Positions 12,775 through 12,961 of a stretch of DNA of 32,000 nt are shown in pieces. Every line of letters begins with the position of its first letter. Position 1 is the stretch's first letter. A program made the position numbers and the translations under genes. The notes beneath the pieces were generated by a model. That model did not search any database. It was not told where the DNA came from and saw only the letters and a program-made list of their open reading frames with translations. Origin of the DNA: Erysipelothrix larvae (GTDB lineage: Bacteria; Bacillota_I; Bacilli_A; Erysipelotrichales; Erysipelotrichaceae); the NCBI RefSeq assembly GCF_001545095.1, contig NZ_CP013213.1:2070001-2102000 (forward strand), written 5' to 3'.

Positions 12775-12802
12775 TAGCAAACAACCCCTTGCAAACGACC
12801 TT

Positions 12803-12937
12803 TTAGCCGTTCACCCCACTCTCTTTCGAGTGGACAGTTAGTGCGTGTCCACCCCCTTTGTAAAGACGGTAATAGGTGTGTGTGTGTGTGTGTGTGTGTG
12901 TGTCACACAGTTCCGTGTGTGTCAAGATTTTTTTCAT
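12803..12937 (-). CDS. Candidate 44-codon upstream ORF containing the (AC)14 tract: MKKILTHTELCDTHTHTHTHTYYRLYKGGGHALTVHSKESGVNG
   Basis: Hand translation from ATG 12937-12935 to TAA 12805-12803. Weak SD (AAAGGA, about 12 nt upstream). Below the ORF-track size cutoff. Confidence 0.3.
   Translation of the reverse strand: MKKILTHTELCDTHTHTHTHTYYRLYKGGGHALTVHSKESGVNG
12876..12903. repeat. Perfect dinucleotide microsatellite (GT)14 (= (AC)14 on the coding strand)
   Basis: Counted directly: 28 nt of uninterrupted GT, followed by CACACAGTTCCGTGTGTG. Confidence 0.98.
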
Positions 12938-12961
12938 CTTTTTAGCGTTTCCTTTCGTTTT

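Follow-up and report, generated by a model that had tools for sequence, protein, structure and literature searches.

Introduction

Bacterial contingency loci are built on simple sequence repeats (SSRs), with units of two or more nucleotides placed toward the 5' end of an open reading frame, and familiar examples are the CT repeats of H. pylori and the CAAT repeats of lic1 in H. influenzae, the latter with three expression states. Long dinucleotide tracts are inherently unstable. In polycistronic phage mRNAs, translational coupling occurs via scanning and re-initiation, including scanning by 70S ribosomes, and the baseplates of TP901-1 and Tuc2009 carry several receptor-binding proteins (BppU/BppA/BppL). 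Here, we analyze a perfect (AC)14 tract that lies in a short upstream open reading frame (uORF) in a siphovirus-type prophage of Erysipelothrix larvae, between the gene of a putative receptor-binding protein (RBP), p270, and three small genes, p147, p134, and p141. All coordinates are positions in the window, i.e., the whole 32-kb stretch of the E. larvae chromosome that was analyzed, and Shine-Dalgarno (SD) energies refer to duplexes with the 3' end of the 16S rRNA. The best reading of the locus, still a tentative one, is a frame-sensitive relay uORF that carries a hypermutable tract; the architecture is unusually suggestive, and slippage could retune the three genes.

Repeats that act in phage genomes or in untranslated leaders have been described in several systems. 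Hypermutable polyG tracts are reported to diversify the phenotypes of Campylobacter phages (Sorensen 2021, Cell Rep 35:109214, as cited in PMC10877375 and PMC11868660). In H. influenzae, 7-mer repeats upstream of hmw1A form a hairpin in the 5'-untranslated region that is cut by RNase III (PMC12721329). In E. coli, CA-repeat tails were the strongest standby enhancers tested, with an effect saturating at 16–18 nt, and CA multimers placed 3' of the start codon raise expression as well (PMC5934652).

The Dinucleotide Tract and Its Reading Frames

The tract is the sole microsatellite that Tandem Repeats Finder detects in the window, and in a regular-expression scan of the same sequence the runner-up dinucleotide run has four units and the longest homopolymer eight nucleotides. 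A perfect tract of 14 units is far beyond chance and a gross outlier for the sequence of the window. Both programs confirm the original prediction, made from the letters and their open reading frames (ORFs), that the 14 perfect GT units of the plus strand are the only long SSR of the window. The p270 stop (12962-12964) and the p147 ATG (12774) are 181 nt apart, and the gap that holds the tract is the largest of the structural module and, as had been stated for an otherwise packed tail module, the sole large gap among the tail and lysis genes (Table 1).

Within this gap the predicted 44-codon uORF was found as described, and the tract encodes D(TH)4T in it. The repeat unit has 2 nt, so that each slippage event would shift the termination point. 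Rebuilding the sequence for n = 6–20 units reproduced exactly the three outcomes that had been proposed: with 11, 14, or 17 units the uORF stops at 12805-12803, with 12, 15, or 18 units it stops at 12840-12838, and with 13, 16, or 19 units it remains open through to a TAA at 12776-12774, which overlaps the p147 ATG (12774-12772) in a TAATG. As in contingency loci, the SSR is perfect and long enough for hypermutability, and a change by one unit shifts the reading frame and with it the stop. In a promoter and terminator scan of the gap, no promoter spans the tract, neither kind of element was found on either strand, and the counts equal those of shuffled sequences; a TTGACA at 12925-12920 stands without a -10 partner. 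As a separate observation, the uORF ATG shares the frame of p270 and stands exactly nine codons past its TAA (27 nt), so that a ribosome reading through the p270 stop would append the uORF and its Thr-His tract to p270.

Initiation Sites and Stop-to-Start Distances

From p270 onward the cistrons follow each other at 24 nt (p270 to uORF), 28 nt (uORF to p147), 29 nt (p147 to p134), and 27 nt (p134 to p141), and in the one close relative, a contig termed L001, the last three spacings are 28, 29, and 28 nt. These near-uniform spacings make the chain from p270 to p141 look like one re-initiation relay. From the uORF on, its stops lie 27–29 nt from the next start, and two of its downstream cistrons, p134 and p141, lack an effective ribosome-binding site (RBS), with p147 in an intermediate position: the SD duplex energies are -7.7 kcal/mol for p147 (gapped), -5.2 kcal/mol for p141, and +0.1 kcal/mol for p134, versus -10 to -14.7 kcal/mol for the other late genes. 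These energies agree with the weak SD on p147 and the missing SDs on p134 and p141 that the original prediction had noted. The SD of the uORF (-9.8 kcal/mol) is better than that of p147, p141, or p134.

With 14 units, the uORF stop falls in the loop of a predicted hairpin (HpC), with 28 nt left to the p147 ATG and 12 nt to the AAGGGG SD. The earlier idea that n = 14 represents an OFF or low state is probably wrong, since this stop is placed just 5' of the p147 SD at a distance that matches the 29- and 27-nt junctions; n = 14, which is kept by both genomes, is more likely a coupled than an OFF state.

A further sequence feature concerns initiation sites in general. The motif AAAAAACGAAAG(G/A) occurs twice, once upstream of the SD of the major capsid gene (21338-21363) and once directly after the p270 stop (12948-12964), and may represent a translation-initiation context shared by late genes.

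Conservation in a Diverged Relative

Relatives were sought by megablast, blastn, tblastn, pattern scans, protein-guided scans, and k-mer and exhaustive HMMER protein searches. Phage megablast, distant blastn, and tblastn returned no useful relatives for a comparison of tract length, exact-pattern scans of viral, genome, and metagenome contigs gave 0 matches, and protein-guided scans of these three kinds of contigs gave 0 confirmed loci. By k-mer and exhaustive HMMER searches, the cassette family was found in two places only, namely E. larvae and one Logan contig (L001, SRR6161627). This contig has the same gene order with different cassettes, which encode 123/123/141 aa versus 147/134/141 aa in the window, and its tract has exactly 14 units. 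The comparison with related prophages that had been recommended thus found the tract in the sole close relative, at identical length and with no variation seen.

Between the window and L001, nucleotide identity amounts to 70–88% in the N-terminal half of p270 and about 90% in its C-terminal half, rises to 95–97% over the last 60 nt of p270 and the gap, the best-conserved stretch of the locus, and falls to noise inside p147, while the DNA stretch that includes p141 reaches 93%. Point divergence around the tract is about 2–3%. The sole indel of the leader, +3 nt in L001, keeps the frame and yields a uORF of 45 codons, and TAATG is replaced by TGATG, which still provides an overlapping stop, so that all three frame outcomes are preserved. 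A perfect n = 14 in both diverged lineages favors selection against changes by ±1 unit, i.e., frame sensitivity, and argues against a neutral scar and against an enhancer that tolerates different lengths; drawn from two sequences, this is modest evidence.

Predicted Structure of the Leader RNA

The leader RNA is predicted to form one small hairpin immediately 5' of the tract and three further hairpins, HpA, HpB, and HpC, behind it (Table 1). All four differences between the window and L001 fit this structure (a repaired mismatch, a loop insertion, an unpaired change, and U.G to U-A), and there is no double compensatory change among them; the z-score of the fold is -1.6 in the window and -3.5 in L001. 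The tract itself is ~80% unpaired in the predicted ensemble and lies ~85 nt from the p147 SD, and the p147 ribosome-binding window, 0.31–0.36 unpaired, is among the more structured of the operon. RNA structure was rejected as a readout of tract length, as the minimum free energy (MFE) and the accessibility of the p147 SD and RBS are flat from n = 6 to n = 20. With no predicted effect of length on RNA structure, the reading frame is the only obvious length-sensitive readout, if length matters at all.

A known RNA family was rejected as well, since an Rfam covariance scan of 12000–13800 gave two matches at chance level (E 2 and 8.6), none of them in the leader, and a comparison of the leader with the rest of the window revealed no significant similarity. 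The leader (12833-12843) and the p134-p141 intergenic region (11877-11887) share an 11-nt perfect inverted complement (CACTAACTGTC / GACAGTTAGTG), which is kept in L001 with a shift of 1 nt; at a chance expectation of about 0.3 per 1.6 kb, it could permit long-range RNA pairing or be nothing.

Proposed Mechanism and Rival Explanations

What is directly observed comprises the tract and its frames, the weak or missing SDs, the stop-to-start distances, and the conservation in L001; the mechanism proposed here goes beyond this. The 181-nt gap would be a transcribed, structured leader inside the late operon that ribosomes cross on a short relay uORF. They would start at a former holin initiation site (GAAAGGA, ATG 12937) and traverse (AC)14, melting HpA, HpB, and HpC. 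With n = 14 they would terminate in the HpC loop just ahead of the weak SD and re-initiate on p147, from where the SD-less stop-to-start relay (29 and 27 nt) would hand them to p134 and then to p141. Slippage would move termination either to 63 nt upstream of the p147 ATG (n = 12 or 15), where the chain is probably uncoupled and output would be low, or onto the ATG itself (n = 13 or 16), where the tight coupling of a classic TAATG would result. The output of the three accessory receptor-binding proteins would thereby become heritably and reversibly variable in a minority of genomes, with n = 14 as the state normally kept by selection. We infer here that the uORF is translated, that re-initiation takes place, that slippage occurs at a useful rate, and that any phenotype follows. 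The specific claim that the tract works as a three-state dial, in which the stop stands 63 nt upstream, 28 nt upstream, or on the p147 start and so sets the amount of accessory RBPs, is doubtful.

Several observations weigh against the relay uORF. The 12-nt spacing between its SD and ATG is long, and its three-frame layout is not statistically unusual and alone no evidence of design: 41% of shuffled versions of the 99 nt behind the tract retain one or more open frames, and the prior for a TRATG overlap is about 0.15. The mean unpaired probability of the p147 SD is 0.55 and unaffected by n, and with its own SD ~55% unpaired, de novo initiation may suffice on p147; its translation need not depend on ribosomes delivered from upstream, as had been supposed. 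The AUGs of p134 and p141 are paired in local folds of the window, and this occlusion is absent from the local folds of L001, for which reason it was dropped as support for coupling. Compared with L001, the uORF shows two non-synonymous changes and the in-frame insertion with zero synonymous changes, and it was rejected as a conserved small protein on these grounds; queries with the three frame products retrieved nothing but unrelated low-complexity proteins rich in Thr-His, and in L001 the gene caller missed the uORF. Moreover, late genes are silent in lysogens, so that selection acts only at induction and infection. The shared n = 14 equally means that repeat-number polymorphism, the hallmark of contingency loci, is unseen: the two consensus sequences do not differ in repeat number, in a comparison of low power. 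Finally, uORF and tract are explicable as a recombination scar.

In this last explanation, a serious rival that we nonetheless regard as rather unlikely, a segment with the head-domain genes entered the holin gene at its 5' end by insertion or duplication, an ACACAC seed at the junction grew by slippage, the tract is functionless, and p147, p134, and p141 rely on initiation sites of their own or on ordinary coupling. Of the 21 nt in the first seven uORF codons, 16 match the holin start of the window itself. The 17-mer TAAAAAACGAAAGGAAA, which directly follows the p270 stop, recurs unchanged in L002, which carries a more distant p270 homologue; there it stands behind the p269 stop and leads into the holin ATG. 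The holin starts that the uORF start resembles contain ACA-CAA/CAC codons. The uORF start is thus probably a leftover holin start, and the simplest history suggested by these likenesses is that insertion or duplication placed a block of cassettes in the 5' end of a holin gene, leaving behind a truncated, once-functional initiation site. Several further observations fit a scar: L002 and L003, the latter likewise with a more distant p270 homologue, have neither gap nor cassettes, and the holin comes directly after that homologue; p141 shares homology with the C-terminus of p270; the uORF peptide lacks conservation at the protein level; and the family is known from two genomes only. However, a neutral tract of 14 units should drift or gain interruptions, yet it is perfect and equal in lineages that differ at four other positions of 181 nt, and the gap is better conserved than the adjoining coding DNA. 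The holin-derived start cuts both ways, as ribosomes plausibly load there and yet the uORF need not be selected.

The tract might instead serve as a CA-rich translation enhancer or standby platform, where single-stranded (AC)14 recruits the 30S subunit for the uORF or for the p147 start ~90 nt downstream and approximate length counts rather than frame. We consider this unlikely, though it is a serious rival as well: the tract is indeed largely unpaired and followed by three stable hairpins and a structured p147 ribosome-binding window, and CA-repeat standby sites have a precedent in E. coli (PMC5934652), but saturation at about eight units should free n above this value, yet both genomes have exactly 14; the precedent relies on E. 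coli protein S1 and may not extend to Erysipelotrichia; and three hairpins separate the tract from the p147 SD. It is improbable that the structured leader with HpA, HpB, and HpC is the functional element, e.g., as a protein-binding, stability, or processing site that sets the accessory dose, with the SSR incidental. Centroid and consensus folds both show the three hairpins, the z-score in L001 is low, the changes are structure-compatible throughout, and the gap is highly conserved; on the other side, the window fold itself reaches only -1.6, compensatory double changes and an Rfam match are both lacking, and the invariant tract stays unexplained. HpA, HpB, and HpC are also too short for RNase III sites. 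A role at the DNA level, in which Z-DNA or a RecA-preferred recombination hotspot at the cassette boundary promotes swapping or attenuates transcription, is very improbable. RecA prefers GT-rich DNA, the window and L001 cease to be alike about 100 nt downstream of the tract, and the cassettes differ while leader and inter-cassette linkers are conserved; yet the real breakpoint lies in the N-terminal coding region of p147 and not at the tract, and conserved N-terminal coding regions and linkers already supply homology for recombination.

Two other known types of switch were rejected. For invertase switching as in Gin, Cin, or shufflons, the cassettes share a single strand, an 11-nt inverted repeat at chance level is the sole one present, and no recombinase is found among the module genes scanned. 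For a diversity-generating retroelement (DGR) at the locus, 11000–15000 of the window contains no template/variable repeat pair.

The Prophage and Its Putative Receptor-Binding Module

The prophage extends on the minus strand from about 9.9 kb to beyond 25 kb of the window, with the gene order terminase, portal, protease, capsid, tape-measure protein (TMP), Dit, Tal/Sipho_Gp37, p270, 181-nt gap, p147, p134, p141, holin, and endolysin.

Table 1. Features of the locus, listed in the direction of transcription (aa, amino acids)
Feature	Position	Strand	Remark
TMP	15749-17500	-	
Dit	14922-15752	-	
Tal/Sipho_Gp37	13771-14931	-	
p270, putative main receptor-binding protein	12962..13774	-	after TMP, Dit, and Tal genes; conserved N-terminal shoulder-like domain and variable C-terminal head
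GAAAGGA, uORF SD	12950..12956	-	within conserved motif TAAAAAACGAAAGGAAA; 7 contiguous anti-SD pairs; 12 nt before ATG
uORF (n = 14), 44 codons	12803..12937	-	ATG 12937; product MKKILTHTELCDTHTHTHTHTYYRLYKGGGHALTVHSKESGVNG; likely leftover holin start
Small hairpin ACACAC-GGAACU-GUGUG(A)	12904..12920	-	immediately 5' of tract; predicted in MFE and consensus folds, identical in L001
(AC)14 coding strand / (GT)14 plus strand	12876..12903	-	Tandem Repeats Finder, 14.0 copies, 100% matches
HpA	12849..12871	-	predicted; pyrimidine arm CCGUCUUU paired with AAAGGGGG; in L001 G>U removes mismatch, 3-nt insertion in loop
HpB, UCCACUC-GAAAGA-GAGUGGG	12815..12834	-	predicted in centroid and consensus folds, invariant in L001
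HpC	12791..12814	-	predicted; 10 bp; loop holds n = 14 uORF stop UAA (12805-12803); sole L001 difference U.G to U-A
AAGGGG, p147 SD	12785..12790	-	weak/moderate, gapped duplex; 10 nt before ATG
p147, first accessory head-domain protein	12331..12774	-	E. larvae AOC36_09505
p147-p134 junction	12302..12330	-	29 nt, SD-less
p134, second accessory head-domain protein	11897..12301	-	no SD
p134-p141 junction	11870..11896	-	27 nt, SD-less
p141, third accessory head-domain protein	11444..11869	-	closest to p270 C-terminus
Holin (Holin_LLH)	11117..11431	-	strong SD; marks end of putatively inserted cassette
Endolysin	10271-11116	-	M23+CW_7

The N-terminal domain of p270 was modeled with AF2 from a 7-sequence alignment (pLDDT 65–88), and its best fold matches, all of them weak, are the receptor-binding proteins of lactococcal phages 1358 and p2 (E 7e-3 to 4e-2, TM about 0.3), with SPP1 gp22 also among them (E range to 0.1). 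By this weak likeness of a model, p270 looks like a receptor-binding protein of the lactococcal p2/1358 type. Over residues 162-269, p270 shares 30% identity with p141 (E 5e-10 to 9e-10), and the p270 C-terminus also resembles that of p134. Furthermore, p147 and p134 share their N-terminal ~35 aa (E 7e-7). p147 is 100% identical to P0009 / AOC36_09505 and weakly matches a PHROG tail-fibre family, and p134 is likewise matched weakly by PHROG families of minor tail proteins and of receptor-binding tail proteins (E 2e-5 to 1e-3). The single-sequence AF2 prediction of p141 (pLDDT 33) gave no usable model, and the same was found for the C-terminal head of p270. An RBP with three accessory head-domain paralogs is a fair description of the module. 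The flanking genes had been called tail-fibre genes; their receptor-binding type stands, on the weak fold match of p270, the homology of p141, and an apparently DGR-targeted relative of p270, whereas tail fibre is a loose term for them.

This relative is a distant, 440-aa homologue of the p270 family at L004:2000-2736 (ENA food metagenome ERZ940651, k127_178679), which has a DUF6273 C-terminus ending in ...SSPNVGYSYEPRDVSTTGGVSNHTAGHAGGVAPACVII and is followed by an Avd-like ORF and then by a partial ORF, SSPNVGNSNNTRNVNTTGNVNNNNANNANGVAPDCVY, rich in AAC codons. From its sequence the arrangement looks like a DGR variable repeat, Avd, and template repeat that target the receptor-binding head, which would place the p270 family at a host-range hot spot. 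In an exhaustive search, a head-domain profile matched P0011 (2990 aa) in 15 separate stretches, and the head domain of the small paralogs thus resembles a tandemly repeated, possibly adhesin-like domain of giant proteins.

The two linkers of the window both open with a C-run right after the stop (TAACCCCCC, TAACCCCAC) and look like cassette linkers. The linker between p147 and p134 (12302-12330; …AAACGACTTAGCCTATTATTATGGC) is 87% conserved in L001:7376-7404, while the flanking coding sequence is unrelated. Elsewhere in the prophage, the tape-measure ORF has 583 aa in the window (GTG start) versus 983 aa in L001:1060-4011, and this size difference would imply different tail lengths or a truncated or split gene. 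Just past the lysis genes, two small genes of 99 and 147 aa run opposite to the late operon (9152-9910, plus strand), with a 92% conserved counterpart at L001:9796-10503; they may be prophage cargo (moron) genes.

Comparison with Known Systems

If the locus were only a scar, it would show the insertion of receptor-binding head cassettes with conserved linkers between an RBP gene and a holin gene. If the dial were real, it would provide heritable and reversible host-range heterogeneity in a temperate Gram-positive phage and would be the first known SSR phase variation via a uORF and re-initiation rather than via the target ORF or a promoter, as well as the first dinucleotide-repeat host-range switch in such a phage. 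A recent review of phase variation makes no mention of SSRs that act via a uORF and re-initiation, nor did a targeted search of full texts yield an example. The original prediction had named no known case of the arrangement for phage tail fibres; for SSR switching of phage receptor genes as such, the polyG tracts of Campylobacter phages, as presented in the papers that cite them, are a precedent.

Like bacterial SSR loci, the locus combines a perfect long non-triplet repeat in a putatively translated frame, three frame states, and a target class under diversifying selection. Unlike in these loci, the repeat is placed in a separate 44-codon uORF, so that any effect must pass via termination and re-initiation, no repeat-number polymorphism is seen, and the setting is the late operon of a prophage in a Gram-positive host. 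With the Campylobacter phages it would share SSR slippage in a phage genome as a diversifier, which here is only proposed; in the citing papers' account, their tracts are homopolymers inside the affected ORFs of lytic phages, whereas here a dinucleotide tract lies in a leader uORF of a temperate siphovirus-type prophage. As in hmw1A, the repeat would be transcribed in a structured leader upstream of the regulated gene and near G-rich segments, but the hmw repeats pair into a long hairpin and expression scales with their number, whereas the tract described here is predicted to be unpaired and its length to have no effect on folding. The CA-repeat standby sites (MS2 coat, tisB; Sterk et al. 2018, PMC5934652) would be similar in that a structured start is preceded by 16 nt or more of CA-repeat, here predicted to be mostly unpaired; those tails are synthetic, placed directly 5' of an RBS hairpin, and were studied in E. 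coli, whereas the present tract is natural, operon-internal, inside an ORF, and at a distance from the SD.

The SD-less downstream cistrons and the short, uniform stop-to-start distances are shared with coupled phage mRNAs, from which the proposed chain would differ at its entry point, a short ORF that lacks conservation and whose stop position depends on a hypermutable repeat. Compared with RBPs of the p2/1358 type, p270 has the shoulder-like N-domain and the variable head, and the ~140-aa proteins have a common N-terminal stem with variable heads, while, unlike these RBPs, the sequence family is essentially private to two genomes. A real dial would join invertases, DGRs, and polyG tracts as a means by which phages hedge on receptor choice, and its repeat and relay uORF would offer a compact natural part for tunable stochastic expression.

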